Shown: one piece after another, positions 4,990 to 21,628 of the stretch
Position numbering within the stretch: position 1 is the first letter of the stretch
Layout: every line of letters begins with the position of its first letter
Notes under the pieces: generated by a model
Databases searched by the model: none
Told to the model about the DNA's origin: nothing
What the model saw: only the letters and a program-made list of their open reading frames with translations
Assembly (NCBI GenBank): GCA_050331615.1
Contig: JBHJGR010000153.1
Location: 1-21,628 of the forward strand
Direction: 5' to 3'
DNA length: 21,628 nucleotides
Source: Elainellaceae cyanobacterium
GTDB lineage: Bacteria > Cyanobacteriota > Cyanobacteriia > CAKZMO01
Position numbers and translations under genes: made by a program

Positions 4990-5006
4990 AACTCCCGTTC
5001 CCCATG

Positions 5007-5837
5007 TTAGACCCTCGCTTCCCGTCGACGTCGCCAGTACAGCGCCCCAGCGGCTCCGATGACGGCGGCGGCGCTCAATACATGCACCAGGTTGAACGGC
5101 GTACCGGGAAAGAACCAAGAATCGGTACGCAAAAACTCGATCCAGAAGCGCCCAAAGGGATACCAGAGCAAGTAGAGCAGGACAATGTCGCCGGGCCGCA
5201 GTTGCCGCTCGAATCGGCGCGAAATCCAGAAAATTAGGCCAAATCCAATGAAGTTCCAGAGGGATTCGTAGAGAAATAGGGGATGAAAGCGAACGCTTTC
5301 GGGATAGGTGGTCAAGTCGTCGTAGGGGCTAATGCGCCGATTGGGGTCAATGCGCAAGCCCCAGGGCAGGTTGGTCGGCGGACCGTAGAGTTCCTGGTTG
5401 ATAAAATTCCCCCAGCGACCGATCGCCTGGGCCAGGGGCAGCGCCAGCCCAATGGCGTCTAGATACAGCAGAGTTGGGAGCTTCCGCAGCCGGGTGTAGA
5501 GAAATAGCGCCAACCCACCAAACAGAAATGCGCCGAATATATGGATGCCGCCGCTCCAAACCCTGAGAATTTCCCCTGGATTTTGCAGGTAGTAGCCGAT
5601 ACCATCTTCGCTGCGGGGTGACTGAATAAAGACGTAATAGAGTCGTGCACCGATGAACGCCGGAATCAACACCCAGATCAGCATGTCCCAAAAGTCTTCG
5701 GCGCTCTGCCCCCGACGCTGGATGTAGCGGCTGGCTATCGTTGCGCCAACTAGAATCGCCGTCACCATGAGCAGGCCATACCAGCGCAGCGACAGCGGAC
5801 CAAACTCGAAAATGATGGGATCGACGGGTGGATACAT
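5007..5837 (-). CDS. lgt: Prolipoprotein diacylglyceryl transferase.
   Basis: A 276-aa polytopic membrane protein. It begins MYPPVDPIIFEFGPLSLRWYGLLM and carries GGIHIFGAFLFG and WGNFINQELYG, all typical Lgt signatures. Confidence 0.9.
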   Translation of the reverse strand: MYPPVDPIIFEFGPLSLRWYGLLMVTAILVGATIASRYIQRRGQSAEDFWDMLIWVLIPAFIGARLYYVFIQSPRSEDGIGYYLQNPGEILRVWSGGIHIFGAFLFGGLALFLYTRLRKLPTLLYLDAIGLALPLAQAIGRWGNFINQELYGPPTNLPWGLRIDPNRRISPYDDLTTYPESVRFHPLFLYESLWNFIGFGLIFWISRRFERQLRPGDIVLLYLLWYPFGRFWIEFLRTDSWFFPGTPFNLVHVLSAAAVIGAAGALYWRRRREARV

Positions 5838-6052
5838 GAACCTTGCCTTAGCCAGAGATTAAGTCGGGCACCGCGAGCGTTGCCCTGAGGTCTAGCCTAC
5901 CAAATGCTGGCTGGGTAGAAGGATGCCCTGCGGGGGCTTTTTGCGGCTCAGGTGTGTCAAGGATGTGGAAAATTTGGGGATTTCCAAGCAGCCTAGGCTA
6001 GATTCGGACGAGGGTAGTTGCGCTGGCTAAGCACTTGCTTAGAGCGATCGCC

Positions 6053-6310
6053 TCACAGAGCAGAGTAGTGGTCTTGGCAGGAGCGAGCGTTGTCGAGACG
6101 GTCCTTACCTCCTAAGCAGGATTCGGATCGTTGCACCAGCGAAATGGGGATGACAACCGCCCACAGAGCTGCGGCTATGGCAACCACAGTCCACGAAGCT
6201 CGGTCGGTGTTGGGAGTAGAGGTGTCCCTCAGGAAGTCGAGGGTCAACACGACGGCAAATATGAGGGCGATCGCGAGATAAGCCAAGACAAAGATGGATG
6301 AAGCTGTCAT
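6053..6310 (-). CDS. Hypothetical small membrane protein with two predicted TM helices.
   Basis: An 85-aa ORF with an ATG start. It is transcribed divergently from the crp-like gene. No RBS is evident. Confidence 0.3.
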   Translation of the reverse strand: MTASSIFVLAYLAIALIFAVVLTLDFLRDTSTPNTDRASWTVVAIAAALWAVVIPISLVQRSESCLGGKDRLDNARSCQDHYSAL

Positions 6311-6571
6311 GGGAGTCGGATATCTCTGCTTACAACAAGTAGCGAGACGACCATTTTAAACTTTTTGTTCTCTAACGGTGAAAATTTGATTTATTTTTAT
6401 AGAAGCATAGAATTCTCGACTGGCAGCTTTCTCATACATATCAAGGTTTTAGCTGATTAGGCTCTAATTCAAGAAGATTTCGAATGAAGTCAAATCAAGC
6501 TGGAATAATCCCCTAATGCACCTGAGCTTCGTGGCAGAATTAGGATAGGTCCTAACGTCAGGAGAACCGGC

Positions 6572-7651: not shown

Positions 7652-8296
7652 CTAGTTAATGAACACCTGACCATCGGGCTGGATGCGGATGACGCCTTGG
7701 GTGTCGTCAAGCCCCTGGTCTTCTTCGATGGAAATTTCCAGCATTCCGTCGGTAGTGCTCGTAATGATGTCCACCAGCCCCTCGTCCTGCCGGACCGTCG
7801 TAATCGTTGCGGGCACAGAAATACCCTGCAGGGTTGCTTCTTCCTGAGCCTGGAGGTAGCGGCGCTGGGTTTCGCCGGTAACCTCGTAGGTGATCAGGGC
7901 ATTGGTGTCATTCATAATGCGCACATCAACCGTGCCATTCGTCGGCGGCACGACAGCAACCGGCGGCAGATCAACGGCGACTCCATCGGGACCGTACTCA
8001 ACGCCAGATCCCTGAGGCACTGTCTGCATAGGCATGCCATCCATGCCGGCGCTAGCTGAAGCACCTTGGGTTTCTCCTACCAAACGGCTGTATTCATTGA
8101 GGGGGCAACCTTCGGGAACAAGTAGGTTAGAGCTAAATGGCTCTTCGTAGTAAATTCCAGGACAGGGATTGACGCCGGGCGTCTGTGCAGCTGCTTTCTG
8201 GACCACAGAGGCTCCTGCAAGTAGGCTACCTGCAGCGATACCAAGCAGTCCAGCCGAGCGAATATGTTTGATGATGGGCAAAGAGGTAAAACTCAT
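7652..8296 (-). CDS. Secreted hypothetical protein with a signal peptide and an acidic Thr/Gly/Asp-rich mature region. The start is trimmed to the ATG at 8296.
   Basis: The signal peptide is MSFTSLPIIKHIRSAGLLGIAAGSLLAGASVVQKAAAQ. An AGGAAA SD-like repeat sits directly upstream. I recognised no domain. Confidence 0.55.
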   Translation of the reverse strand: MSFTSLPIIKHIRSAGLLGIAAGSLLAGASVVQKAAAQTPGVNPCPGIYYEEPFSSNLLVPEGCPLNEYSRLVGETQGASASAGMDGMPMQTVPQGSGVEYGPDGVAVDLPPVAVVPPTNGTVDVRIMNDTNALITYEVTGETQRRYLQAQEEATLQGISVPATITTVRQDEGLVDIITSTTDGMLEISIEEDQGLDDTQGVIRIQPDGQVFIN

Positions 8297-8406
8297 ATGA
8301 TTTCCTTGGTGATTTCCTTGGTATCTGCAATACATAAACTTTCACCTTACAAGTTAGATGAAATGCAGTGTACCGACACCTTGCCCGCGATAGAACTCAG
8401 CCTCTG

Positions 8407-9594
8407 TCAATGGTTTAGACTAGCCGATGGCTTTATTTGGTAAAGCAAGTTCCAGATTTGCTGATTGGTGTGAATCAGGTTGAAGCGCTCCTGGGCCTGC
8501 CGTTGAGCCGTTTGGGCGATCGCCCCACTTCCATTCGGCTGGGTGCAGACGAAATGAATGATATCGGCAAGCTTTTGGGCATCACCGGGAGGGCTGAGCC
8601 AGCCGGTAATGCCGTGCTCGACTAGCTCAACCGCCCCGCCAGCGGCAGCGGCTACGACGGGGGTGCCACAGAGCATGGCTTCAACGATGACCCGACCAAA
8701 GGGTTCGGGAGCGGTGGAGGTGTGGGCGACCAGATCGCAGGCGGCCATGAGCTGGGGAATGTCGGACCGAAAGCCCAAAAACTGGACCCGGTGGTGGAGC
8801 TTGAGAGCTTCGACCTGCTGATGGAGCTGCTGGGCGTAGTCCTGTTCCCCAAACAGCGCATCTCCCACTAAGATGGCGACAACATGATCCGGGCAGTGCC
8901 GGAGGGCTTCCAGCAGCACATGCTGCCCTTTCCAGGGAGATAAACGGCTGAAGTGGCCCACAATAAACGGAGAAGGGTGGTTGGGTAAAGCCGATGTCAG
9001 CGTTTGACGCAGGCGCTGGCTGGCCTGTGCGGAGCCCATATCGTCCCCGTTGGCATAGGTTTCTAGACGAAAGCCGTTATACACCACGTGAATCCGGTCA
9101 GCTCGCCCACCCGCTTGGACTAGGGCATCACGACTGGCCTGGGAATTGGCAATCACAAGGGCCGCCCGATTGGCGAGGGTAACAATGATGCGGCGGTTGG
9201 TAGCGCTAAAGTGGTCTGGCGAAACAATATCGTGGAGGTGGTAGACCAGAGGCCGACCGCTGAGGAAGCTGGCGATCGCTCCTACCACCAGGGCCTTTTG
9301 CGTATTGGCATAGATCAGGTCATAGGACTTGCTGAGCTGAGTAACGCCAGCAACCAAGGGGAGGAGGCGGTTGAGACTCTTTAGCCCCGCCAGCAGACCG
9401 CTGGCTTTCTGGACCTGTAGGGCCTGATTAGCGAGAACCTTAACGGGAACAGGGAGCTGCCGCAGGTAATCGGGAAAGGTCCCCTCGGCAAAGACCCCCA
9501 CAAGGCTAGTTTGGCCAAAATGCTGGGCAATGTCGGCGAGGCAAAGTTCTGCACCGCCCAACTTGCCGCTTTGATCTAGAAAAAGGATTTTCAT
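8407..9594 (-). CDS. GT4-family (group 1) glycosyltransferase.
   Basis: A 395-aa ORF. It has a GT-B C-terminal domain containing the EPFGRVIVEAMLCGTPVVAAAAGG motif (E-x7-E region). Confidence 0.9.
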   Translation of the reverse strand: MKILFLDQSGKLGGAELCLADIAQHFGQTSLVGVFAEGTFPDYLRQLPVPVKVLANQALQVQKASGLLAGLKSLNRLLPLVAGVTQLSKSYDLIYANTQKALVVGAIASFLSGRPLVYHLHDIVSPDHFSATNRRIIVTLANRAALVIANSQASRDALVQAGGRADRIHVVYNGFRLETYANGDDMGSAQASQRLRQTLTSALPNHPSPFIVGHFSRLSPWKGQHVLLEALRHCPDHVVAILVGDALFGEQDYAQQLHQQVEALKLHHRVQFLGFRSDIPQLMAACDLVAHTSTAPEPFGRVIVEAMLCGTPVVAAAAGGAVELVEHGITGWLSPPGDAQKLADIIHFVCTQPNGSGAIAQTAQRQAQERFNLIHTNQQIWNLLYQIKPSASLNH

Positions 9595-9698
9595 CGCGCC
9601 TAAAACTCAATTAGCCCGTTTTCGCCTCATGATCCATAAGTACGGCTATCCAGCTTGCCCAACCGGATATCCGCCTGGCTAATTGAGGAAAGTGATGC

Positions 9699-10175
9699 CT
9701 AGCGTGACGGTTCATCCGCGACTAGCTCCCGTTGGGGGAGAGTTTCTGGCGCGGCGGCAAACGGGCGGGGCTGGAAACGTCCGATGAGGGCATAGCTGAC
9801 CAGTCCCGCATATTCCCGCAGGGCCAGGGTCGTCCTTTGCATGGCGGGAACGGTCAACGGTACGATCACGGGATGGGGAATGACCTGGAAGCCGAAGCTC
9901 TTGAAGGTAAGCACCGAGCGCAGCATGTGGGGCTGGTCGGTGACCAGGATCAGCCGACTTGCGCCGATGGTCTGGAGCAGCTCAGAGGCGCGAATAGCGT
10001 TTTCTTCGGCGGTGCGGGCCTGAGGTTCGACGATCTGGGCCGAGAGAGGAACGCCGAGCTGGGTGAGCTGGGCCGACAGGCGGGGCGCTTCGCCACGACC
10101 CGTGGTGAGAATGATGGGGGCGCGATCGCCCTGCCAAAGGCGGAACGCTGTCTGCACCCGCTCTGGCTCGGCCAA
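9699..10175 (-). CDS. DUF218 (YdcF/ElyC/SanA-family) protein. The ORF-track start is a TTG. The conserved N-terminal motif continues upstream without a canonical start.
   Basis: The sequence RAPIILTTGRGEAPRL...TAEENAIRASELL...LILVTDQPHMLRS matches the DUF218 core. In frame upstream of the TTG the sequence encodes ...SADAIVVLGRGRL, which is the DUF218 N-terminal AIVVLGGG block. Confidence 0.65.
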   Translation of the reverse strand: MAEPERVQTAFRLWQGDRAPIILTTGRGEAPRLSAQLTQLGVPLSAQIVEPQARTAEENAIRASELLQTIGASRLILVTDQPHMLRSVLTFKSFGFQVIPHPVIVPLTVPAMQRTTLALREYAGLVSYALIGRFQPRPFAAAPETLPQRELVADEPSR

Positions 10176-10359
10176 TCGCCCCCGGCCTAAAACGACGATG
10201 GCATCGGCAGACTGTCCGAGAATGTACGGTTCCTACCTTTGGGTCTACCCCAGCCTCGCTTTGGCCTGCCCTTAGAACGATGGATGAAGCGTTAAGGTTC
10301 TGTAAATTTTCCCTAGAGCAGCAGGCTCTAGACCCTTTGGCACAGGCTGACTTTGATTC

Positions 10360-12030
10360 ATGGTCTTCGATTCTCTAGAATTTTTCCTATTTCTGGCGAT
10401 CGCCTACGGGCTGTACCGAGTCCTGCCATTTCGGGGTCAAAACCTGATGCTGCTAGGGGCCAGCTACCTCTTTTACGGCTGGTGGGACGCCCGGTTTCTG
10501 TTTCTCATTGTCCTATCAACCGTGGTGGACTTCTGCTGCGGCCTCCTAATCGATCGGGGACAGCTCACTCCCCTGGAACGCCGATTTCCTTCCTTTTATT
10601 TGGTCTTTGCAGCCCTGGCCTTCCTCACGGTGCGGTGGGATGCAGTCCGTTTGAGTCCAACCTTTCCTGTGCTGACGGTAGACTGGGGGCAGATTCTACC
10701 CGCTACGCCATCGGCCTGGTTGCCGCTATTCGGCACGATCCTGCTGGTAGTGGGCGTTAATGGACTCTATCCGCGACTGATGGCGATCGCCCCCGATCCC
10801 CGCAGGCGCACCTTTCTCATCCTCAGCATCGCCACCAATCTGGGCATTCTGGGAGTTTTCAAGTATTTCAACTTTTTTATTGATAGTGCTGGATTTTTAT
10901 TGGGCACCATCGATGCCCGTCCAGAGCTGTGGAGCCTGAACATCATTCTCCCGGTAGGTATCTCCTTCTACACGTTTCAAACCATGAGCTACACCATCGA
11001 CATCTACCGGGGGGAGATGAAGGCGGCCCGCCATTTTTTGGACTTTGCCCTATTCGTCTCTTTCTTCCCCCAACTGGTGGCCGGGCCAATCGAGCGGGCC
11101 TCGCGACTGCTGCCCAAGATCCTGCAGGTGCGGCGGCTCAATGGGGAGCAGACTTTTCGGGGGCTGTTTCTAATTCTATTTGGGCTGTTTAAGAAAGTGG
11201 CGATCGCCGACAGCGTAGCCGTTTCTGTCAATGCCGTCTATGAGTCTACGGGCACCGTATCCTGGCTGGACGTGGTGCTGGCAACGGGTCTCTTTGCGGT
11301 ACAGGTTTACTGCGACTTTTCGGGCTATTCCGACATCGCTCGGGGAACTGCCAAGCTGTTTGGCATCGACCTCATGCCCAACTTCAAGCTTCCCTACTTT
11401 GCCAAAAACCCCAGCGACTTTTGGCGGCGGTGGCACATTAGTTTATCAACCTGGCTGCGGGACTACCTTTATATTCCCTTGGGCGGCAGTCGGCGCGGCA
11501 CCGTCAAGACCTACCGCAACCTCATGCTCACGATGTTTCTGGGGGGGCTGTGGCATGGGGCCGCCTGGCACTTTGTTCTGTGGGGCGTCTATCAGGGAGG
11601 GTTGTTATGTGCCCATCGAGCCGTAAGCCCCAAGCACTCCGCGCAGGCGGACCAGCGCCCCCAGCCATCAGGCTTTAGCCTTCCGGCAGCGCTGAGGGGT
11701 ACGGTGGTAACCCTTGCGTTTCTGGGCATCACCTGCTACGGCTGGCTTTTATTTCGCGCCAATTCGCTAGGGCAAGCCTTTGATTTCACCCAAATCCTCA
11801 TTGCTAACATCGGCAACTTCTCCCTCACGATGCCCAGACCAACTTTGGCCGGACTACTGGGGCTCCCCGTCCTCATTGGCTTTGAAGCTGTGGAGTATTT
11901 TTCCGGGACGGCTCATTTCTACGCCCAACTGATGCCCATGATTCGCGGCATCACCTATGCAGCCCTTGTTGTGCTGATCCTTATGGGAACAAGCAATGCA
12001 TCTACCCAGTTCATCTATTTCCAGTTCTAA
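10360..12030 (+). CDS. MBOAT-family membrane-bound O-acyltransferase, AlgI/DltB-like.
   Basis: A 556-aa polytopic protein. It has the conserved FYTFQTMSYTIDIYRG and WRRWHISLSTWLRDYLYIPLGGSRRG blocks and the MBOAT catalytic His region. Confidence 0.9.
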   Translation: MVFDSLEFFLFLAIAYGLYRVLPFRGQNLMLLGASYLFYGWWDARFLFLIVLSTVVDFCCGLLIDRGQLTPLERRFPSFYLVFAALAFLTVRWDAVRLSPTFPVLTVDWGQILPATPSAWLPLFGTILLVVGVNGLYPRLMAIAPDPRRRTFLILSIATNLGILGVFKYFNFFIDSAGFLLGTIDARPELWSLNIILPVGISFYTFQTMSYTIDIYRGEMKAARHFLDFALFVSFFPQLVAGPIERASRLLPKILQVRRLNGEQTFRGLFLILFGLFKKVAIADSVAVSVNAVYESTGTVSWLDVVLATGLFAVQVYCDFSGYSDIARGTAKLFGIDLMPNFKLPYFAKNPSDFWRRWHISLSTWLRDYLYIPLGGSRRGTVKTYRNLMLTMFLGGLWHGAAWHFVLWGVYQGGLLCAHRAVSPKHSAQADQRPQPSGFSLPAALRGTVVTLAFLGITCYGWLLFRANSLGQAFDFTQILIANIGNFSLTMPRPTLAGLLGLPVLIGFEAVEYFSGTAHFYAQLMPMIRGITYAALVVLILMGTSNASTQFIYFQF

Positions 12031-14982: not shown

Positions 14983-15762
14983 ATGTCTGTCCCTGCTGTT
15001 CAATCCACACCAGTTCCCCCCGCATCAGCTCTGCCGGAAGACCTGGTGTTGCCGCCCAGTGAGCCCTACAGCGATGAACCCCCCTTGGAAAGCTCCCTCC
15101 ACCTCCAGCAACTCCTGCTGCTGCTGAAATGCCTGGACTGGCTCTGGAAAGATCGCAACGACTACTTCACCGCCGGGAACCTGACGATTTACTACAGCCC
15201 CCACCAGCGCAAGTCCGAGGACTTCCGTGGCCCCGATCTTTTCGTGGTGCTGGGTGCGGAGAAGCGGCCCCGCAACAGTTGGGTGGTGTGGCATGAAGGG
15301 GGGCTGTATCCCCATGCGATTATTGAACTGCTGTCAGACTCAACCGCCAAGACCGACCGGGGGCTGAAGAAAGACATCTATCAAGACATCTTCCGCACGC
15401 CGGACTACTTCTGGTTTCATCCCCACACGCTAGAATTCGAGGGCTTCCATCTGGCTGACGGCACTTACCAGCCCATTCCCGTGAACGAGCAGGGCTGGCG
15501 CTGGAGTCAGCAGCTCCAGCTTTATCTGGGCGTCTACGAGAACCAACTGCGGTTTTTCACCGCTGAAGGCGTGCTGGTGCCCACCCCTGAAGAGTCGGCG
15601 GCAGCCGAGCGCCAGCGGGCCGACGCTGAATACCAGCGAGCGGAAGCCGAACGTCAGCGGGCCGAAGCCGAACGTCAACAGACTGAAGCTGAACGCCAGC
15701 GCAATGAGCGGTTGGCTGCCCGACTGCGGGAGCTGGGCGTGAACCCCGATGATGTCCTGTAG
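14983..15762 (+). CDS. Uma2-family (DUF820) PD-(D/E)xK endonuclease with a C-terminal AERQRAEAERQ coiled-coil repeat.
   Basis: The conserved blocks are NLTIYYSP..PDLFVVLG...WVVWHEGG.YPHAIIELLSDST...D...K..IYQDIFRTPDYFWFHP. The C-terminus has (AERQRAE) repeats followed by LRELGVNPDD, typical of cyanobacterial Uma2 proteins. Confidence 0.85.
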   Translation: MSVPAVQSTPVPPASALPEDLVLPPSEPYSDEPPLESSLHLQQLLLLLKCLDWLWKDRNDYFTAGNLTIYYSPHQRKSEDFRGPDLFVVLGAEKRPRNSWVVWHEGGLYPHAIIELLSDSTAKTDRGLKKDIYQDIFRTPDYFWFHPHTLEFEGFHLADGTYQPIPVNEQGWRWSQQLQLYLGVYENQLRFFTAEGVLVPTPEESAAAERQRADAEYQRAEAERQRAEAERQQTEAERQRNERLAARLRELGVNPDDVL

Positions 15763-15795
15763 CTGGTGTGAGTTAGCGGATGGGTGGAGGTGGCC

Positions 15796-17601
15796 ATGAT
15801 CGGACAGGTGTTGGGCGATCGCTACGAAATTCGCGAGCAGCTGGGCAAAAAGGCCGGACGGCAAACCCTGCTGGCCTGGGATCGGCAGGAGGAGCAGCCG
15901 GTGGTGATCAAGCTACTCAGCTTCAGCCAGGAGTTTGTCTGGGATGACCTGAAGCTGTTTGAGCGGGAGGCAGAAACTCTGCGCAGCCTTTCCCATCCCT
16001 GCATCCCCCGCTATCTGGACTTCTTTGAGATTGCCCAGCCCCCGGCCCATCGTTTTGCCCTGGTGCAGAGCTATGCGGCGGGGAAGTCCCTGGACGCTCA
16101 CCTCAAAGCGGGCCGCAGCTTCCAGGAGGCGGACGTGACCCAGTTGGCCGCCGCCCTGCTGGAAATTCTGGTCTACCTGCACGGCTGTCACCCGCCCGTG
16201 ATTCACCGCGACATCAAGCCCAGCAATATTCTGCTGAGCGATCGCCCCAACAACTCCGTGGGAGACGTGCATCTGGTGGACTTTGGCTCGGTGCAAACCC
16301 TGGCCGCCACCGAAGGAGGCACCATTACCATCGTCGGCACCTACGGCTACATGCCGCCAGAGCAGTTTGGCGGGCGCACCAGCCCCGCTTCGGACCTGTA
16401 TGGTCTGGGAGCGACGCTGGTTTACCTGGTGACGGGACGCCACCCGGCGGATCTGCCCCAGCGGCATTTGCGGCTGGAGTTTGAGCCGTTTGCCGACCTC
16501 AGCCCCGGCCTGATGCGGTGGCTGGCGCGGCTGGTGGAGCCGAGCGTGGAGCGGCGATTTACCTCGGCGACAGTGGCTTTGAAGAAGCTGGAATCCCTTT
16601 CCCAGCCCATGCCCGTGTGGGTGGAGCAGCCGGTCCAGACCGAGCAGGAGACGGTGGCGATCGCCCAACCGCCCCACAGCCAGATCAAGCTCTCCCGATC
16701 CGCCAACCGACTCACTATCCAGTTTCCCGCCAAGCTGACGGAGAAAACCCCCGACCCTTCCCCCCTGTTTCGCCGTAGCGGGTTATGGCTGGCGGCGTCG
16801 GTCTGTCTCTTCGTGGTGCAGCCAGAATTTCTGGTGTTTCTCCTGTGCATCTGGGGCGGCGGCGTAGGCACCGAAAAGCTGGTTTTGAAGCGGCTCACCC
16901 GCTCCCACTCCCACTCCCAAACCCTGACCATTGATTCCCAGCAGGTCACCCTCGATCGCTACGAAAACGGCGTCCTCCAATCTTCCCAATCCAGCCCCCG
17001 CAAGTCCCTGGCCGGGGTGGAGTATTGCTGTAGCCACGAAGGCTACCATTCCCTGGGGCTCTGGGGCGATCGCCGCTATGAGTTTGGCAGCAGTGAGATG
17101 GTTTCCGGTGCCGACCTGCGGTGGCTGGCCCAGGAGCTGGGCACTTGGCTCTCCATCCCCGTGCAGCACACCAACCACCACCTGCCCCTGCCCAAGGCCC
17201 TGTTCCGCAAAGGTCCGCCCAAGCTGATAGCCAAACCGACTCCCGTGGAGAAACCGGCCAGCAGTGCGATCGTCCTGCTGAAGCGCCCTGGCTGGATTGA
17301 CATCCTGGTGCCCCTCGACACCGCTTCAACCACCGACGCCTACACCCGCCTCTACATCGACCACCAGCAAATCCACCAAACCTATGCCTCTGGAGACGAT
17401 CCGCCCCCCAGTATGCGGGTGGCCATCCGGGCGATCGAGTACCACAGCAGCGACGAGGGCGGCGGCTTTCTGCGCATCTGGGCCGGTAAGCAAAACTACG
17501 ACCTGGGCAAGGATGAACCCCTATCGCCGGAGGAACTGCGGTGGCTGGTCTATGAGCTGGGGCAGTGGCTCAGGGTACCGATTTATCGGACGCATTTGTG
17601 A
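15796..17601 (+). CDS. Hanks-type Ser/Thr protein kinase with a C-terminal tandem-duplicated uncharacterised module. The start is trimmed to the ATG at 15796.
   Basis: GGAGG lies 5 nt upstream of the ATG at 15796. The kinase motifs are VIKLL (the conserved Lys region), HRDIKPSNILL, DFGS and GTYGYMPPEQ. The C-terminal 300 aa holds two homologous modules, each ending in LRWLxxELGxWLxxP. Confidence 0.85.
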   Translation: MIGQVLGDRYEIREQLGKKAGRQTLLAWDRQEEQPVVIKLLSFSQEFVWDDLKLFEREAETLRSLSHPCIPRYLDFFEIAQPPAHRFALVQSYAAGKSLDAHLKAGRSFQEADVTQLAAALLEILVYLHGCHPPVIHRDIKPSNILLSDRPNNSVGDVHLVDFGSVQTLAATEGGTITIVGTYGYMPPEQFGGRTSPASDLYGLGATLVYLVTGRHPADLPQRHLRLEFEPFADLSPGLMRWLARLVEPSVERRFTSATVALKKLESLSQPMPVWVEQPVQTEQETVAIAQPPHSQIKLSRSANRLTIQFPAKLTEKTPDPSPLFRRSGLWLAASVCLFVVQPEFLVFLLCIWGGGVGTEKLVLKRLTRSHSHSQTLTIDSQQVTLDRYENGVLQSSQSSPRKSLAGVEYCCSHEGYHSLGLWGDRRYEFGSSEMVSGADLRWLAQELGTWLSIPVQHTNHHLPLPKALFRKGPPKLIAKPTPVEKPASSAIVLLKRPGWIDILVPLDTASTTDAYTRLYIDHQQIHQTYASGDDPPPSMRVAIRAIEYHSSDEGGGFLRIWAGKQNYDLGKDEPLSPEELRWLVYELGQWLRVPIYRTHL

Positions 17602-17620: not shown

Positions 17621-17881
17621 CTACAGCCCAAGGCGTTGCTTGGCCTCATCCCAACTCATAGTTTCTCCCTGCTCAGCCTGAGAGATGCTGGCCTGGAGCT
17701 GACCAGTAAACTCGTTATCAGCCAAAATATCCAGCGTTTCAAGCAGGGAGGCAAACTGTTCGTAGCTCACTGCCGCCATGACGGGTTGACCATCCTGGGT
17801 GATGATGATGGGCTGGGCTGTGAGCTTTTGGGGTAGCTCTAACAGTTGTTGCTGTGCTTCAAGAATCGTGAGACGGTCCAT
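17621..17881 (-). CDS. Phd/YefM-family type II antitoxin, with no cognate toxin gene downstream.
   Basis: An 86-aa ORF: MDRLTILEAQQQLLELPQKLTAQPIIITQDGQPVMAAVSYEQFASLLETLDILADNEF. It shows the typical Phd/YefM N-terminal fold pattern. Only 20 bp separate its stop from the convergent kinase gene. Confidence 0.7.
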   Translation of the reverse strand: MDRLTILEAQQQLLELPQKLTAQPIIITQDGQPVMAAVSYEQFASLLETLDILADNEFTGQLQASISQAEQGETMSWDEAKQRLGL

Positions 17882-17963: not shown

Positions 17964-19400
17964 TTAGAGTATCCCCGCAATCAGCGGCAGCAGCTTGTTC
18001 ACCGCCTGCACAAATTTGGTGGCATCCGGCAGGGTCTGGGCCATGCGGTTGAGGGTGCGGCTGGCCCTGGCGAGGACGGACTGGCGGGCTTCGGGTTCGT
18101 CGGACTGGGCAGCAGTGGCGATCGCCCCCACCGCTTCTTCGGCATCGGGTTTCTCTTCGGCGGGCAGGTTGGGGTCGGTTTGGATGGCCTCCAGCAGTTC
18201 CGTGAGGTAGGCTTTGAGGTCGTTACCCGCTGCGGTCGGAGGAATCTGGTTGAGGGCGTTGGTGACGGTGCCGCTGATGTCTCCTAGATTAAGGGCAGCA
18301 CCGCTGGCGGTAAAATCGCCGCCCACGTTGCCAATTTTGATATTGCGGCTGGAGTCGGAGCTGTTGGTCATGGCTTTACCTTCTGCGATCGCTTTAACAT
18401 CTACTGTAGTTGGATTGAGCGTGAGGTTAATCTGATGCGACTGACTAGCGCCCAATTGACCTATGACATTTATGAGGTTTGAGTTTTGTTCACGGACAGA
18501 TTCTAACTGCTTTAGGTTATCGTTGTATCTCGACTCTAAAGCTCTGGTAGCCATTTCATAAGTACGAATCAATTCACTGATGACTTTATCCCGGTCAAAC
18601 TCCTGGGGTATTTTGACCTTAATAACTACGGTTCCGTCTTCCCTCGTTTCTATACCTCTTACATCTATCTCAATCCCTTCATTCTCAACGATTACCTTTT
18701 GAAAAGAGTATTGTACAGCTTGCCAATCTACCCCATCTGGAAAGGGAATACTAATTGTATCGGTAGTCCTACTTGCCCGATTCTCTAGGTATTCCCGTGT
18801 CCGCTGAGGTAAGACAATATTCTCGACTGCAACGCGTGTAATTTTTATTCCCCAAGTTGCAGTGGCTTCGTCAAGGCTATCCATCATACTACGTTCTATC
18901 TCGTCGCGAGACGAGAGAACATTTTCTAGGGGTGTACGATTAATAAGAGCACGTAGGTGCGGTACGATAACGTTTTTGCATGCCTCTTCAGAATCTTCGA
19001 TGGTGTAATACGTTTGCTGCATTTCAAGCATTCGCCAGTAGGCAACAACGCTCACTTGGATTGAGAAGTTATCCTTTGTAATAGCCTCTAGTGGTTGAAC
19101 CTCCATAATCATCTCTCGTGTGGTTCCTACCCATACGATCCGATCGATGCCAGGAACGATGAAGCTTATTCCTGGTGTTAATTTGCGATGATAACGCCCA
19201 AACCTCTGAACAATTGCCTCATAGCCTTGATCTATCACTCTGGCGGAGATGAAAGTATAGCCGACTAAAAAAAGAGCCAGAACCGCAACTAAGGCAATGG
19301 GACTGGATAAATAGACGAGATAAACGATTGCAGCGGTAATGCCAGCTAGCACGACGAATCGGAATAAGACGCCCATGATGGAAGGATAAAGGCTATTCAT
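17964..19400 (-). CDS. SPFH/Band-7 (stomatin/prohibitin-like) membrane protein. It has a long C-terminal extension carrying a module shared with the next gene upstream. The start is at the ATG at 19400 (MNSLYPS).
   Basis: Two N-terminal TM helices are followed by an SPFH domain (VIDQGYEAIVQRFGRYHRKLTPGISFIVPGIDRIV...TKDNFSIQVSVVAYWRM...LRALINRTPLENVLSSRDEI). The extension contains DGVDWQAVQYSFQKV...VVIKVKIPQEFDRDKV...SSDSSRNIKIGNVGGDFTASGAALNLGDISGTVTNALNQ. Confidence 0.8.
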   Translation of the reverse strand: MNSLYPSIMGVLFRFVVLAGITAAIVYLVYLSSPIALVAVLALFLVGYTFISARVIDQGYEAIVQRFGRYHRKLTPGISFIVPGIDRIVWVGTTREMIMEVQPLEAITKDNFSIQVSVVAYWRMLEMQQTYYTIEDSEEACKNVIVPHLRALINRTPLENVLSSRDEIERSMMDSLDEATATWGIKITRVAVENIVLPQRTREYLENRASRTTDTISIPFPDGVDWQAVQYSFQKVIVENEGIEIDVRGIETREDGTVVIKVKIPQEFDRDKVISELIRTYEMATRALESRYNDNLKQLESVREQNSNLINVIGQLGASQSHQINLTLNPTTVDVKAIAEGKAMTNSSDSSRNIKIGNVGGDFTASGAALNLGDISGTVTNALNQIPPTAAGNDLKAYLTELLEAIQTDPNLPAEEKPDAEEAVGAIATAAQSDEPEARQSVLARASRTLNRMAQTLPDATKFVQAVNKLLPLIAGIL

Positions 19401-19521
19401 CAAGAACAAGCTCTTGGGTTGAATACACTGCTGGGTTAAGTGCTGCTGATCGGTACCTCAGTATTGGCTCACAGATCCAGATATGTCCAGCTCGCAAAGC
19501 ATTACTCTTTAGCAGCAATAT

Positions 19522-21414
19522 TTAGTCTAGTTTACCTTCATTGCTGCAATCGGTTTCAGGTGATGCTGAGGATTGGTCAATCGTGTTGGTTACGCTACCG
19601 CTTACGTCTCCTAGGTTGAGAGCTGAGCCGCTAGCATTGAGGTTACCTCCAACGTCGCCAATCTTGGTCTCGCGGGAAGAATCTGAACTGTCGCTCTTAG
19701 CTTTACTATCTGAATGGCTCTCAGAAGTGACGTTGAAAACTTGTGAAACCGGCCCTACAACCATTAGAGCCTTTTCCAAGCTATCGGCACGTCTCCGCTC
19801 CCCTTCCAATAAACCGGCAGTACGAGCCGCTTCAAGCCTAGCTTCAATAACCTCATCAAAATCTCGCTCCAGATTCCCCTTATCAGTGCCAGGTGGAATC
19901 TGGACAGTCACCAGCATGTCATCGCCCTTTTTCTCGACTGCCTGCACGGCGTCAGAAGCAATATCGTACTCCTCCATCACCTTCTGAAAAGCTGCCTGGA
20001 AATCGTCAGCCGTTGCACCATGCCGGATCAGAAGCTGAACGGTGTCCATAACTTCCTTAAAATATTTCTCGAAGTCACCCGGTTGGAAAACCTTATCAGG
20101 ACTATGGGGGCGGCGTTCCCGGCTACCCATCTCATCGGGGTGCTCCAGCAAAAAGACAAACTGGCAGTCCACGTGATCCAGGACGGTAGTGTGATCAATG
20201 TTCCAGCCCTGCAAGCAGGCTCCCGTCAGGTAGGCGTGGGTGAAGTCAGCGTCGATACAGAGGGTTTCTGTGAGGTTGGCCTCTTTGAGGTTGGCGGCCT
20301 TGAGAGTCGCCCCACTGAGGTCGGCCCATTTGAAGTTGGCCCCCTCCAGGTTTGCACCGCTGAGGTTGGCCCCCCGTAGGTCGGCGTCGATGTAGGACTG
20401 CCGGTAGCCGTTGAGGGTGGTCAGGAGCTTCAGCACGTTGAGGTCAGCGAGGATGGTGTCGCCGGGGCGAGCGCGATCGAGCTTGAGGGCGTCTTTGAAG
20501 CAGGTGCGGGTGAGGGTGGCGGCGCGGAAGTTGGTGCTTTTGAGCTGAGCGTGGCTGAAGTTGGCGTCAGTGAGGTCGGCTTTGTAGAAGGAGGTGCCGC
20601 CTAGAGCGCCGAAGGCTAAGCCAAAGCTGCGGATCACAAAGAATTTAGGATCGCCCTTTAGGGCATGTCGAGCGACGTAGGTTCCTAACCCGGCGAGTGA
20701 GACTGCAAATGCACCCCCGACTATAATCGCCGCCGAGACTGAAAATGCAGCGAATATGGCTGCAAATGCGCCTATGGCTATGAATACACCTGCGATTGTC
20801 ACCGCACTTGCAACTGCGTCTGCTCCTACTCCTGCACCCACGACTGCACTTGCGAAGGGGATAGCGGCTGTGACGGCGACAGCGATTAAGATGGCTCCTG
20901 AAATAGCAACAGCAACTGAGCTTGAGCCTACGATTGCGACTATAACTGCGACTGTGGCTGCGATTGTGCCAACTAGGGCAACGGTGCCCAATAACTTTCT
21001 GGTGAAACCTTCTCGGGCGATCGCAATAACCATTCCAACAGTGATGATAATTTCGGTCACCGAGCGAGCGGCATACTTTATAGGTTGTTCAGAACTGAGG
21101 GCAAAATTAACGGTCTTGTCGATTGAGAAAGCAAGATACATACCCGTCAACTCTGCCCCAACAAACTGAATAACAGCAATTAAAACAAACGACGCAACCA
21201 ACTGCCCCACCACCCATCGCATTTGCAGCCCCGCCTTCGCGCCGCTAAAGTTCACCCCCATCAGCGTCGCCCCGGCAAAGTTCGCCCCGCGAATATCCGC
21301 CCCGCTCAGATTGGCTCCGCTCAGGTTTTGTCCCTTGAAGTTGCCACCGCGCAGGTTTGCGCCGCTGAAGTCGCGTTCTCCTTGGGCATAGCGGGTGAGG
21401 AGGGGGTGGGGCAT
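19522..21414 (-). CDS. Polytopic pentapeptide-repeat membrane protein. It has N-terminal pentapeptide repeats (PRPs), a block of about six Ala/Gly/Val-rich TM helices, a second PRP region and a C-terminal module shared with the SPFH gene. The start is trimmed to the ATG at 21414 (MPHPLLTRY).
   Basis: The PRP stretches are GANLRGGNFKGQNLSGANLSGADIRGANFAGATLMGVNFSG and ADLRGANLSGANLEGANFKWADLSGATLKAANLKEANL. The end of the repeats reads CLQGWNIDHTTVLDHVDCQFVFL, followed by ERRPHSPDKVFQPGDFEKYF...FQKV...LVTVQIPP...SSDSSRETKIGDVGGNLNASGSALNLGDVSGSVTNTIDQ. Confidence 0.75.
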   Translation of the reverse strand: MPHPLLTRYAQGERDFSGANLRGGNFKGQNLSGANLSGADIRGANFAGATLMGVNFSGAKAGLQMRWVVGQLVASFVLIAVIQFVGAELTGMYLAFSIDKTVNFALSSEQPIKYAARSVTEIIITVGMVIAIAREGFTRKLLGTVALVGTIAATVAVIVAIVGSSSVAVAISGAILIAVAVTAAIPFASAVVGAGVGADAVASAVTIAGVFIAIGAFAAIFAAFSVSAAIIVGGAFAVSLAGLGTYVARHALKGDPKFFVIRSFGLAFGALGGTSFYKADLTDANFSHAQLKSTNFRAATLTRTCFKDALKLDRARPGDTILADLNVLKLLTTLNGYRQSYIDADLRGANLSGANLEGANFKWADLSGATLKAANLKEANLTETLCIDADFTHAYLTGACLQGWNIDHTTVLDHVDCQFVFLLEHPDEMGSRERRPHSPDKVFQPGDFEKYFKEVMDTVQLLIRHGATADDFQAAFQKVMEEYDIASDAVQAVEKKGDDMLVTVQIPPGTDKGNLERDFDEVIEARLEAARTAGLLEGERRRADSLEKALMVVGPVSQVFNVTSESHSDSKAKSDSSDSSRETKIGDVGGNLNASGSALNLGDVSGSVTNTIDQSSASPETDCSNEGKLD

Positions 21415-21460
21415 GGGATTTTGGATTTTGGATTGGGGATTTTGGATTGGGGGGTTGGAT
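21415..21460 (-). repeat. STRR1-like heptamer array directly 5' of the ATG at 21414 (ccaatcc aaaatcc ccaatcc aaaatcc ATG on the minus strand).
   Basis: On the plus strand the sequence is ggattttggattggggattttggattgggg. It is related to the array at 13262-13295. Confidence 0.6.
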
Positions 21461-21519
21461 GGGTGATTGGCATCCGGTAGGGGCGATGCATTCGGCAGGG
21501 ACGTTGTCGTCACCTGCAA

Positions 21520-21628
21520 AACGTTCTGGCCGAATGCATCGCCCTTACAACCGTGGATGAGAGGCAAAACGCCTATAAACGTTCTGGCCGAATGCATCGC
21601 CCTTACAACCGTGGATGAGAGGCAAAAC
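21520..21628. repeat. Perfect 51-bp direct repeat in two copies separated by 7 bp. The array may continue past the window end. Each unit contains the right arm of a 16-bp inverted repeat whose left arm lies at 21482-21497.
   Basis: The unit aacgttctggccgaatgcatcgcccttacaaccgtggatgagaggcaaaac occurs at 21520-21570 and again at 21578-21628. The arm gggcgatgcattcggc at 21482-21497 is the reverse complement of gccgaatgcatcgccc within each unit. Confidence 0.7.

Follow-up and report, generated by a model that had tools for sequence, protein, structure and literature searches.

Two adjacent membrane-protein genes with a common C-terminal module

The window (the whole 21,628-nucleotide stretch analysed) carries on its minus strand two neighbouring genes, one encoding a pentapeptide-repeat (PRP) protein and the other an SPFH protein, which bear one tail-less and one complete copy, respectively, of a module of about 265 aa. 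The features, from high to low coordinates within each gene, are as follows.

19522..21597, minus: PRP-type carrier gene, a mechanical ORF of 691 aa (PRP, TM region, PRP, junction, tail-less module)
20713..21228, minus: TM region of the PRP protein (aa 124-295), a hydropathy scan showing about 6-7 hydrophobic segments
20173..20613, minus: second pentapeptide-repeat beta-helix domain (aa ~329-475), from Pfam and NCBIfam
20047..20121, minus: RERRP...PGDFEKYFKEV junction between pentapeptide helix and module (aa 493-517), kept in PRP-type carriers
19771..20046, minus: module copy 2, subtype-2 N-domain and helix (aa 518-609), HMM match and hhalign to subtype 1 (98.9%)
19573..19707, minus: Gly/Ser/Asp-rich motif copy b (aa 631-675), HMM match, 64% identical to copy a
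19522..19572, minus: short C-terminal end, SSASPETDCSNEGKLD plus stop, non-homologous in alignments and lying where the tail would be
19410..19521, minus: 112-bp intergenic gap from PRP stop to SPFH start, read from the sequence
17964..19409, minus: SPFH-type carrier gene, an ORF of 481 aa (TM hairpin, SPFH domain, complete module), its gene order repeated in an independent assembly (L162)
19281..19394, minus: hydrophobic hairpin at the N-terminus of the SPFH protein (aa 6-43), two 19-residue segments in a crude Kyte-Doolittle scan
18774..19238, minus: SPFH/Band 7 domain (aa 58-212), PF01145 at E = 4.4e-32, 112 bits against a cut-off of 23.6
18444..18761, minus: module copy 1, subtype-1 N-domain and ~50-residue helix (aa 217-322), from AlphaFold2, HMM match and hhalign to subtype 2
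18381..18443, minus: variable linker (aa 323-343), poorly conserved with many indels, pLDDT falling from ~73 to <50
18246..18380, minus: Gly/Ser/Asp-rich motif copy a (aa 344-388), N-terminal half disordered and C-terminal half forming the first tail helix in the model
17967..18236, minus: predicted helical-bundle tail (aa 392-481), ending LLPLIAGIL

The PRP protein matches PF00805 (tandem A(D/N)LXX repeats) in five stretches at E = 2e-35, and also PF13576 and PF13599. A 58-bp tandem repeat overlaps the first codons of its mechanical ORF, and translation probably starts at M62 (ATG at 21414); a protein from another sample (P0104) is identical at 690 of 691 positions. The Tail HMM finds no match in the window PRP protein, and the 112-bp gap behind the gene holds no tail remnant and no terminator-like site, only a single promoter-like match at chance level. 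In the SPFH protein, alignment shows homology to five cyanobacterial SPFH proteins of 270-320 aa stopping near aa 212; the Ala/Glu-rich C-terminal region of these ordinary SPFH proteins is absent, and the module is found in its place.

A C-terminal module common to the two membrane proteins had been proposed in a preliminary description of this DNA, and BLASTP bears this out (E = 1e-13, 33% identity; SPFH aa 217-399 against PRP aa 518-689). The aligned regions lie at 18240..18761 and 19567..20046, compared with the span 18249..20121 given earlier, and every sequence block quoted there recurs in both proteins. Homology thus stands, but the proposed length of about 160 aa does not: family-wide the module measures about 265 aa including a helical tail of about 90 aa. 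Likewise, the stretch described as 40 aa and nearly identical is present, but only 27 of 42 residues match (64% at the protein level). Its DNA identity over the 42 residues is 64.3%, and identities of 69, 88 and 36% at codon positions 1, 2 and 3 indicate an old divergence under purifying selection. The similarity also extends beyond the Ser/Gly stretch, as the N-terminal part alone gives E = 1e-4 in pairwise comparison, and profiles of the two N-domain subtypes built with the Gly motif left out align over 73 columns with an hhalign probability of 98.9% (E = 1.7e-17). That the copies are old paralogues and not a recent duplication, as first suggested, is supported by an N-domain identity of 25% (rank 147 of 207) and by both copies being far closer to relatives elsewhere; the nearest to the PRP-copy N-domain are P0056 (64%) and P0015 (54%). 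For the Gly motif, the 64% identity between the copies equals the family median (rank 101 of 201).

Anatomy and distribution of the module family

Four parts make up the full module: a small beta-alpha-beta-beta domain (the N-domain), a ~50-residue helix, a conserved hinge rich in Ser, Asp, and Gly, and a tail predicted as a helical bundle. We modelled it with AlphaFold2 as a monomer, using 16 and later 135 aligned sequences; the latter run gave a mean pLDDT of 83.5, with about 96 for the N-domain and about 95 for the tail. The subtype-1 N-domain model has strands at residues 2-7, 33-39, and 45-50 and helices at 13-26 and 57-106 (pLDDT ~96), and the long helix probably forms a coiled-coil stalk. 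Residues 118-157 of the module model have pLDDT <50, followed by a helix at 159-171 inside the Gly motif. The tail is predicted to be a four- or five-helix bundle whose first helix is the conserved ISGTVTNxINQ.

The Gly/Ser/Asp-rich motif is the best-conserved segment of the family (2.71 bits per column), yet this hinge lacks a confident predicted structure. It had been thought to have a 6-residue glycine periodicity and to form a short beta-helical or beta-solenoid segment. Conserved glycines occur at columns 17, 20/21, 27, 33, and 37, so a weak trace of periodicity survives, but the spacing is irregular. The beta-solenoid itself finds no counterpart in the AlphaFold2 models, which show no beta structure in the stretch: its N-terminal half has pLDDT <50 with 16 and with 135 sequences, and its best-conserved half (NLGDISGTVTNxINQ) provides the N-cap and the opening helix of the tail bundle.

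Far from being private to two neighbours, the module belongs to thousands of cyanobacterial proteins. A threshold of E <= 1e-3 gave 2,336 representatives (clusters at 50% identity) and one of E <= 1e-30 gave 399; the 80 genome loci kept were without exception cyanobacterial. The family is covered by neither Pfam nor NCBIfam, and the searchable literature yielded no paper naming the module by its motif; the family is large, restricted to cyanobacteria, and without prior description. Pfam, NCBIfam, and further profile searches gave no enzyme-like or known-domain match to the module, the sole library match being that of the tail to a phage defence candidate, PDC-M14B. Fold searches brought up no significant match, only generic helical bundles and small alpha/beta folds of the dimerisation type. 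The module has no catalytic features.

We surveyed carriers among the best 150 of the 2,336 family matches. Most often the module is carried by a single TM-PRP protein of about 700 aa, found across Nostocales, Leptolyngbyaceae, Thermosynechococcaceae, and other groups; at least ~110 carriers are PRP proteins (with TM) and at least ~10 are SPFH proteins with TM, with SPFH, CHAT, and other carriers rarer than TM-PRP. In PRP-type carriers, alignments show the module behind the conserved ERRP...PG(D/E)F junction that closes the pentapeptide helix, as anticipated. Confinement to SPFH or PRP-TM architectures does not hold, since the module or its parts also occur with CHAT, Clp_N (four cases), and sigma-54 N-terminal domains and as stand-alone Gly-tail proteins. 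In one carrier (P0124), the CHAT domain sits between stalk and tail. Parts of the module can be encoded separately: in Dolichospermum a TM-PRP gene is followed by a Gly-tail gene, and in Argonema a CHAT-Gly-tail gene lies near a gene for a TM-PRP protein with the N-domain. Adjacency of SPFH and PRP genes is not conserved across the family, no partner gene conserved across orders was found, and in Nostocales the canonical gene is surrounded by housekeeping genes.

Relation of the gene pair to a single gene in a close relative

L001, a close relative, has only one PRP gene, which ends in Gly motif and tail. Comparison with it marks out two segments of the window.

17973..18377, minus: segment matching the 3' end (Gly motif and tail) of the single PRP-module gene of L001, 95.8% DNA identity by blastn
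18378..20071, minus: segment with no DNA counterpart in L001, by blastn and protein mosaic analysis

The first segment is 97-98% identical in protein sequence. The second comprises, in order, N-domain 2, coiled coil, Gly motif b, and stop of the PRP gene, the 112-bp gap, and then SPFH, N-domain 1, and coiled coil; in its place L001 has about 460 bp encoding another N-domain, of a third lineage, and coiled coil. The breakpoints coincide with the PGDF junction (left) and the start of the Gly motif. The TM region is only 25-50% identical to that of L001, and the TM region and N-domain together range over 25-57% between close relatives, against 93-100% in the flanking PRP domains. Because L001 holds a single PRP gene with a 96% DNA-identical Gly motif and tail, the two-gene pair appears to have arisen by segmental recombination at module boundaries. 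The SPFH gene carries the Gly motif and tail that the relative has on its PRP gene, and the window PRP gene stops after its own Gly motif. The tail is 46-47% identical to the closest SPFH-type tail and to the closest subtype-2 PRP tail alike and therefore gives the rearrangement no polarity. As L001 is a metagenome-assembled genome, the mosaic may be a chimeric assembly joined at the conserved motif; the two-gene layout of the window was found again in the independent assembly.

Self-association, conflict systems, and other possible roles

Self-association or docking is the most likely function that we infer for the module. The explanation we favour, to which we assign as a whole a probability of roughly 55%, is that the module is a cyanobacteria-restricted self-association or docking unit, and that its copies in the window were split over two genes by recombination, the layout being, on the sequence comparison, a lineage-specific product and not a conserved pairing. 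N-domain and stalk would multimerise the carrier in the cytoplasm, and the hinge-tethered tail would dock to other tail copies or to one common partner, so that membrane-anchored carriers (TM-pentapeptide proteins, SPFH scaffolds, and occasionally CHAT proteases) would come together in higher-order assemblies. The module stands in for the native region C-terminal to the SPFH domain in the SPFH protein, and in PRP carriers it lies directly behind the end of the pentapeptide beta-helix.

Both positions have known parallels. The C-terminal coiled-coil oligomerisation region of stomatin, HflK/C, and flotillin likewise follows the SPFH domain with a long helix, and in soluble pentapeptide proteins (MfpA, Qnr, and AlbG; PMC8145042) a dimerisation helix at the C-terminus comes right after the last pentapeptide coil. 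No sequence or fold relationship to either was detected, the module differs in adding an alpha/beta domain, hinge, and bundle tail, and oligomerisation is here only a presumed common property. The founding TM pentapeptide-repeat protein, HglK (All0813) of Anabaena, resembles these carriers in its size of about 700 aa, in lying in the cytoplasmic membrane of a cyanobacterium, and in combining TM segments with pentapeptide repeats. In the published description its four TM segments are N-terminal and its repeats number 36, in contrast to the order PRP, TM, PRP, and module in window-type carriers; as its repeats run from residue 501 towards the C-terminus, they leave no room for a C-terminal module of 265 aa.

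The main competitor, which we regard as possible though clearly the weaker reading, makes the module an effector-associated adaptor of an anti-phage or programmed cell death conflict system, on the principle of the effector-associated domains (EADs) and Death-like adaptors described by Kaur, Burroughs, Iyer, and Aravind in 2020/2021 (PMC7159879 and PMC8195603). The tail would couple TM-PRP, SPFH, and CHAT effectors homotypically to a sensor or NTPase bearing the same domain, and the Ser/Asp/Gly hinge, in which D-x-S-R-K is conserved, might serve as a switch thrown by protease cleavage. EADs, too, are small non-enzymatic terminal domains fused to pentapeptide, Band7/SPFH, and caspase-like CHAT proteins; they are enriched in multicellular cyanobacteria and sometimes lie on adjacent genes. 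Pentapeptide, Band7, and caspase effectors are part of the published concept (PMC7159879), and the module shows fusions of this kind with PRP+TM, SPFH+TM, CHAT, Clp_N, and sigma-54 N-terminal carriers. The promiscuity of the carriers and the cassette-wise divergence of TM region and N-domain between close relatives point the same way, as do some neighbours: the window has Uma2, an orphan Phd antitoxin, and a kinase with matches to PD-T4-6 models, another locus (L081) has HicAB and Uma2, and the Dolichospermum pair has an NB-ARC/NACHT gene nearby. Toxin-antitoxin genes, Uma2 genes, and kinases are, however, very common in cyanobacterial genomes, and the canonical gene mostly stands alone. Within +-10 kb at about 95 loci, and with the best 150 of 2,336 matches listed, we saw no NTPase or sensor protein with the module and no copy on a core component of a VMAP, iSTAND, GAP1, or Ubl NTPase-centred system. 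Against the EAD pattern, the adjacent window copies are not mutual closest relatives, and no EAD, Death-like, or TRADD-N family is among the Pfam matches listed. The module also differs from an EAD, a single small domain, in being a composite of alpha/beta domain, stalk, hinge, and bundle, with a tail that resembles a plain four- or five-helix bundle.

A further argument for a conflict role comes from PDC-M14B, component B of a candidate phage defence system of two genes (Payne et al. 2024, bioRxiv 10.1101/2024.01.29.577857). The tail matches this PADLOC candidate in the window SPFH protein (E = 2.5e-8), in 8 of 13 module copies, and in stand-alone Gly-tail proteins; the C-terminal 100-120 positions of three HMMs align with the end of the Gly motif and the tail. 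The match recurs consistently through the family but is partial: the window tail aligns to profile positions 161-265 of 267, just the C-terminal 40% of the profile, and the module N-domain has no counterpart in PDC-M14B. PDC-M14 is a candidate system only, its function and mechanism without published description, and a PDC-M14A partner (cassette FAM_02625>>FAM_00494) was absent from every locus checked, including the window neighbours and the genes beside stand-alone Gly-tail proteins. A wider and still more tentative version would have the module as common adaptor of a cyanobacteria-wide membrane-effector network (TM-pentapeptide, SPFH, and CHAT) via the tail shared with PDC-M14B, triggered by cleavage or refolding of the D-x-S-R-K/Gly hinge, with TM-region and N-domain-plus-stalk cassettes swapped at their boundaries.

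We consider it improbable that the Gly-rich stretch (peptide SSDSSRNIKIGNVGGDFTASGAALNLG) acts as a short signalling motif of beta-helical, beta-solenoid, or amyloid-like type that folds only on oligomerisation and signals between the adjacent proteins. Its conservation, its richness in Gly, Asn, and Ser, its presence in both genes, and a N-terminal half without confident monomer structure would suit such a motif, and BASS motifs are known from multicellular cyanobacteria. The predictions with 135 sequences speak against it, with the best-conserved half helical and packed into the tail bundle, as do the irregular glycines and the fact that family members picked at random are as similar to each other as the adjacent motif copies. 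A BASS motif stands C-terminally on an effector and N-terminally on the NLR next to it (NB-ARC/NACHT plus TPR/WD); in both window proteins the motif is internal and the window has no NLR, so the defining context is missing. A hexapeptide left-handed beta-helix ([LIV]-G-x4 hexads) was rejected on the same irregular spacing and lack of predicted strands, and no Hexapep family is among the Pfam matches listed (E <= 10). Least probable of all is that the N-domain is a bacterial TRADD-N, the RRM-like adaptor tied to pentapeptide repeats and caspases in cyanobacteria by Kaur et al. It is a cyanobacterial two-layer alpha/beta domain linked to pentapeptide repeats and CHAT, but the TRADD-N hallmark, a tiny residue followed by Ser ("uS") in the beta2-beta3 turn (PMC8195603), is absent: the turn reads NKGDG, REDG, or KKGDD, with conserved K-G-D-G and no Ser at columns 40-43, and the N-domain is predicted to have three strands. 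Comparison with TRADD-N and NCOA6 models gave no profile or structure similarity.

A large class of TM-PRP proteins of about 700 aa is now united by a conserved C-terminal module of 265 aa that also occurs on SPFH scaffolds and CHAT proteases. Its profile allows annotation of more than 2,000 protein clusters, and its four defined parts and their boundaries provide constructs for interaction, localisation, and knockout work. The window offers a clear natural case of gene remodelling by recombination at domain boundaries, and the link between the tail and PDC-M14B gives a testable idea on the cellular role. Cyanobacteria are unusually rich in pentapeptide-repeat proteins, and a function is known for hardly any of them. 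If the adaptor-network reading is true, the module would be the first functional handle on the unexplained abundance of cyanobacterial pentapeptide-repeat membrane proteins.

A shared C-terminal module in two adjacent genes

Two neighbouring genes on the reverse strand, separated by 112 bp, encode proteins with a common C-terminal region. One has an SPFH domain (aa 58-212, PF01145, E = 4.4e-32 in Pfam), and the other is a pentapeptide-repeat (PRP) protein (PF00805, E = 2e-35) in which pentapeptide repeats flank a hydrophobic region of ~170 residues on both sides. The PRP-then-SPFH order recurs in an independent metagenome assembly, whose PRP protein is identical to that of the window at 690 of 691 residues.

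Genes and repeats in the window
14983..15762, + strand, Uma2-family (PD-(D/E)XK) gene
15784..17601, + strand, convergent Ser/Thr kinase gene, 605 aa; kinase domain at aa 14-223, then a hydrophobic stretch
17621..17881, - strand, Phd/YefM-type antitoxin gene, 86 aa (PF02604, E = 6e-9)
17964..19409, - strand, SPFH gene, 481 aa: N-terminal hydrophobic hairpin and SPFH/Band 7
19522..21597, - strand, PRP gene, 691 aa as a mechanical ORF
21416..21460, short 7/14-bp repeat array (GGATTTT)
21519..21628, perfect tandem repeat of 58 bp (1.9 copies) that the window end truncates; covers codons 1-26 of the mechanical PRP ORF

Translation of the PRP gene probably begins at M62 (ATG at 21414), which fits the N-termini of homologues (M..LL.RY..GERDF). 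Copies related to the 58-bp tandem repeat also sit upstream of the single PRP-module gene of a close relative, L001.

BLASTP aligns SPFH aa 217-399 with PRP aa 518-689 (E = 1e-13, 33% identity), bearing out the preliminary description of a module shared by both proteins. The likeness extends beyond the Ser/Gly segment, which rules out a low-complexity artefact: the N-terminal 120-130 residues of the copies match by themselves (E = 1e-4), and alignments of the two N-domain subtypes, each made from family members and lacking the Gly motif, match in hhalign at 98.9% (E = 1.7e-17, 73 columns). Proteins found with SPFH aa 217-481 as query carry this region after an SPFH domain or after pentapeptide repeats, and almost every one continues with a helical tail of ~90 aa. 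The region common to the two genes is thus part of a larger, recurrent unit of ~265 aa, which we call the module. A homologue search with the PRP copy alone as query found nothing, and an exact look-up of the window proteins found no entry.

AlphaFold2 models of the module had a mean pLDDT of 69 with 16 sequences and 83.5 with 135 sequences.

Predicted segments of the module (residue 1 is SPFH aa 217)
2-50, small alpha/beta domain (N-domain): strands 2-7, 33-39 and 45-50, helix 13-26; pLDDT ~96
57-106, one long helix (stalk); pLDDT >90
118-157, no structure: a variable linker followed by the first half of the Gly motif (SSDSSRNIKIGNVGGDFTASGAAL); pLDDT <50
159-264, five-helix bundle (tail); pLDDT ~95

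N-domain subtypes
Subtype 1, NGIDWxAF...IENKGDGVVVVKV: the window SPFH protein, other SPFH carriers and most PRP carriers
Subtype 2, R.G..p.aF.aAF...eKkGdDvLlT: the window PRP protein and 43 further family members

Within the Gly motif, conservation peaks in N-L-G-D/E-I-S-G-x-V-x-N-x-I-N-Q, at ~85-93% per residue; these residues are modelled as the N-cap and first helix of the bundle. The motif has the highest information content in the family (2.71 bits per column; tail, 2.43; N-domain, 2.28). A beta-solenoid had been proposed here from a six-residue glycine periodicity; the periodicity is based on three glycines (columns 21, 27, and 33), and AlphaFold2 predicts no beta structure in the stretch. 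No hexapeptide family is among the Pfam matches listed for the module, and fold searches returned non-significant or generic matches only.

Over the 42-residue Gly-rich stretch, the copies are 64% identical in protein and DNA alike, with 69, 88, and 36% identity at codon positions 1, 2, and 3, a pattern typical of ancient divergence under purifying selection. The low third-position identity, together with nearer relatives of each copy elsewhere, upholds the view of old paralogues and excludes recent tandem duplication or gene conversion between neighbours. The window Gly motifs, at 64% identity, lie exactly at the family median (rank 101 of 201), and the N-domains are 25% identical (rank 147 of 207); no part of the two copies is each other's nearest relative. 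What had been described as a nearly identical stretch of 40 aa therefore reflects family-wide conservation, with no special tie between the neighbours.

Distribution, carriers and genomic contexts

Scored against 1.84 billion cluster representatives, a profile built from 13 copies had 2,336 protein matches at E ≤ 1e-3, of which 1,665 reached E ≤ 1e-10 and 399 reached E ≤ 1e-30; the two genes share the module with many others. Scanning one genome per species confirmed 124 places; of the 80 loci retained, every one is cyanobacterial (Nostocales, Leptolyngbyaceae, Thermosynechococcaceae, Coleofasciculaceae, and others). Pfam, NCBIfam, and PDB sequence searches gave no coverage of any module part; weak Pfam matches to DUF4404, DUF1542, and DUF6030 were inconsistent (two to four of 13 members, E ~0.05) and were not used. 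Source annotations are generic, e.g., "YjbI with pentapeptide repeats" or "SPFH domain-containing protein", and the literature searched holds no mention of the motif strings. The module is undescribed yet widespread in cyanobacteria.

We compared 169 family proteins, which included ~110 PRP proteins (mostly transmembrane, TM), ~10 SPFH proteins with TM segments, and several stand-alone Gly-motif-plus-tail proteins. CHAT, Clp_N, and sigma-54 carriers were also found.

Unusual carriers and loci
P0147: CHAT, Gly motif, tail
P0124 (marine protein): PRP, N-domain, stalk, CHAT, tail; CHAT is inserted between stalk and tail
P0118 (metagenome): four Clp_N, then three tails
P0115 (metagenome): sigma-54 activator-interacting and core-binding domains, with the DNA-binding domain replaced by stalk, Gly motif, and tail
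L165 (Dolichospermum flos-aquae), 4444..6498: 491-aa TM-PRP protein without N-domain, then a 165-aa Gly-tail protein
L167 (Argonema antarcticum), 8001..11975: CHAT-Gly-tail gene ~1 kb upstream of a TM-PRP-N-domain-stalk gene
L168, 8001..11195: CHAT-module case, as are L167 and P0124

The contigs of P0115 and P0118 are short (2-3 kb), and these architectures may be assembly chimeras. At two loci besides the window, L165 and L167, parts of the module are spread over neighbouring genes. The two L165 genes are separated by an AT-rich spacer of 82 bp with an RBS-like GAGGA, and an NB-ARC/NACHT gene lies ~1.3 kb upstream on the opposite strand. The TM-PRP protein of L167 has a divergent C-terminus, and an HTH-like gene sits between its gene and the CHAT gene.

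Each of the 80 genome loci has the module at the C-terminal end of a single protein (~650-760 aa) and, two fragments excepted, the surrounding 10 kb contain no other module gene. None of the 80 PRP-type loci has an SPFH-module neighbour, nor do the SPFH-type loci with flanks (L081, L083, L093, and L166) have a PRP-module neighbour, so the adjacency in the window reflects no conserved pairing. Conserved neighbours occur in Nostocales only and are housekeeping genes (AspRS, FAD amine oxidase, saccharopine dehydrogenase, and Na/H exchanger); none are common to different orders. A conserved subfamily of tail-less PRP proteins was also rejected: the sole other "tail-less" representative, P0123, is a frameshift, with tail fragments in two other reading frames 3' of the gene (8028..8352 of its locus, L163), which makes it either a pseudogene or a sequencing error.

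Next to the window pair, the Phd/YefM antitoxin gene lies 82 bp 3' of the SPFH stop codon on the same strand. The convergent kinase gene ends at 17601, which leaves no space for a toxin gene, so the antitoxin is an orphan; it may share a transcript with the PRP and SPFH genes. The kinase C-terminus consists of two homologous repeats of ~85 aa (aa ~381-465 and ~523-604; BLASTP E = 1e-14, 38% identity) with no match in Pfam, and its kinase domain matches PADLOC models of PD-T4-6 (E = 2e-53), probably through generic kinase similarity. In the window and at L081 and L166, a Uma2 gene lies at most a few kb from the SPFH-module gene; this closeness may be chance, Uma2 being very abundant in cyanobacteria.

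A mosaic relationship with a single-gene relative

L001, a Synechococcales metagenome-assembled genome, has a single PRP gene (P0185) that resembles both window genes in different parts.

DNA identity of window segments to L001
21212..21627 (PRP gene): 90%
20072..20970 (PRP gene): 82%
18378..20071: no DNA counterpart
17973..18377 (Gly motif and tail of the SPFH gene): 95.8%

Both pentapeptide domains of P0185 are 93-100% identical to those of the window PRP protein; its Gly motif matches that of the window SPFH protein at 98% identity, and its tail at 97%. Identity to the window PRP protein is 25-57% over the N-domain plus stalk and 25-50% over the TM region (aa 124-295; 20713..21228), which is a second hypervariable cassette of the gene. 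The breakpoints coincide with the PGDF junction, where the module starts, and with KAMTNSSDSSR, where the Gly motif starts, and this position at module boundaries indicates that the middle of the module was exchanged in one lineage. In the window, this segment comprises a subtype-2 N-domain, stalk, second Gly motif, stop codon, the 112 bp, and the head of the SPFH gene, which, with its subtype-1 N-domain and stalk, runs in-frame into the pre-existing Gly motif and tail. Such an exchange would leave the window PRP protein without a tail, and a reading of the 112-bp gap found no tail remnant.

Insertion into a single ancestral gene is the favoured direction, since the single-gene architecture is near-universal; alternatively, the L001 gene would be a fusion of a pair. 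The closest SPFH-type tail to that of the window SPFH protein (P0001, 46%) and the closest subtype-2 PRP tail (P0075, 47%) are about equally similar, and neither tail nor N-domain similarities discriminate between the directions. The nearest relative of the L001 N-domain belongs to a third lineage (P0054, 74%), so that at least one cassette replacement is implied either way. As L001 is a metagenome-assembled genome, its mosaic may, less probably, be a chimeric assembly at the conserved motif. On the sequence comparison, the window pair appears to be a recombination-generated split form of the module.

Probable self-association or docking, and a possible role in conflict systems

The module has no catalytic motifs or enzyme-like matches. 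Homology of the window SPFH protein to ordinary cyanobacterial SPFH proteins (270-320 aa) stops near aa 212, and the module takes the place of their Ala/Glu-rich C-terminal region. In structures of stomatin, HflK/C, and flotillin, the C-terminal region after the SPFH domain forms a coiled-coil wall that oligomerises the proteins. In PRP carriers, the module begins directly where the pentapeptide helix ends, the junction named in the preliminary description. Soluble pentapeptide proteins dimerise via a C-terminal helix at that position (PMC8145042). Given these two positions, an exposed 50-residue helix, unrelated carriers, and parts that also exist as separate small proteins, the best-supported reading is that the module is a non-catalytic self-association or docking unit. 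A cytoplasmic location is inferred: signal peptides are lacking, topologies are hairpin or multi-TM, and the CHAT, Clp_N, and sigma-54 carriers are soluble.

The main rival is a role in conflict systems like that of effector-associated domains (EADs). PADLOC gave the only library match to any module part: the end of the Gly motif and the tail match PDC-M14B (E = 2.5e-8, profile positions 161-265 of 267), consistently so in eight of 13 module copies, the stand-alone Gly-tail proteins, and P0185. PDC-M14 belongs to a set of 145 untested candidates proposed through "guilt-by-embedding" (PADLOC); its cassette of two genes has 247 instances in RefSeq. The PADLOC files contain no functional description of it, the literature searched does not mention it, and the loci examined have no PDC-M14A partner. 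Beyond the tail match, CHAT fusions, cassette-like divergence, and some neighbours (Uma2, the orphan Phd antitoxin, the PD-T4-6-matching kinase, HicAB at L081, and NB-ARC/NACHT at L165) speak for such a role, whereas the canonical gene usually stands singly and, in Nostocales, amid housekeeping genes, no module-bearing NTPase was seen within 10 kb at ~95 loci, and adjacent copies proved not to be closest relatives.

Further described families were weighed. Bacterial TRADD-N (PMC7159879, PMC8195603) is rejected: its conserved uS turn is absent here, and neither profile nor structure comparison gave a match. Like an EAD, the module is fused terminally to diverse effector domains; no EAD or Death-like family is among the Pfam matches listed. 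The context that defines BASS amyloid motifs is missing. HglK and CipG, compared by description, have published architectures that do not fit.

The module reveals no new mechanism as yet; its definition gives a clear, testable starting point for work on a very large group of cyanobacterial membrane proteins that lack characterisation.
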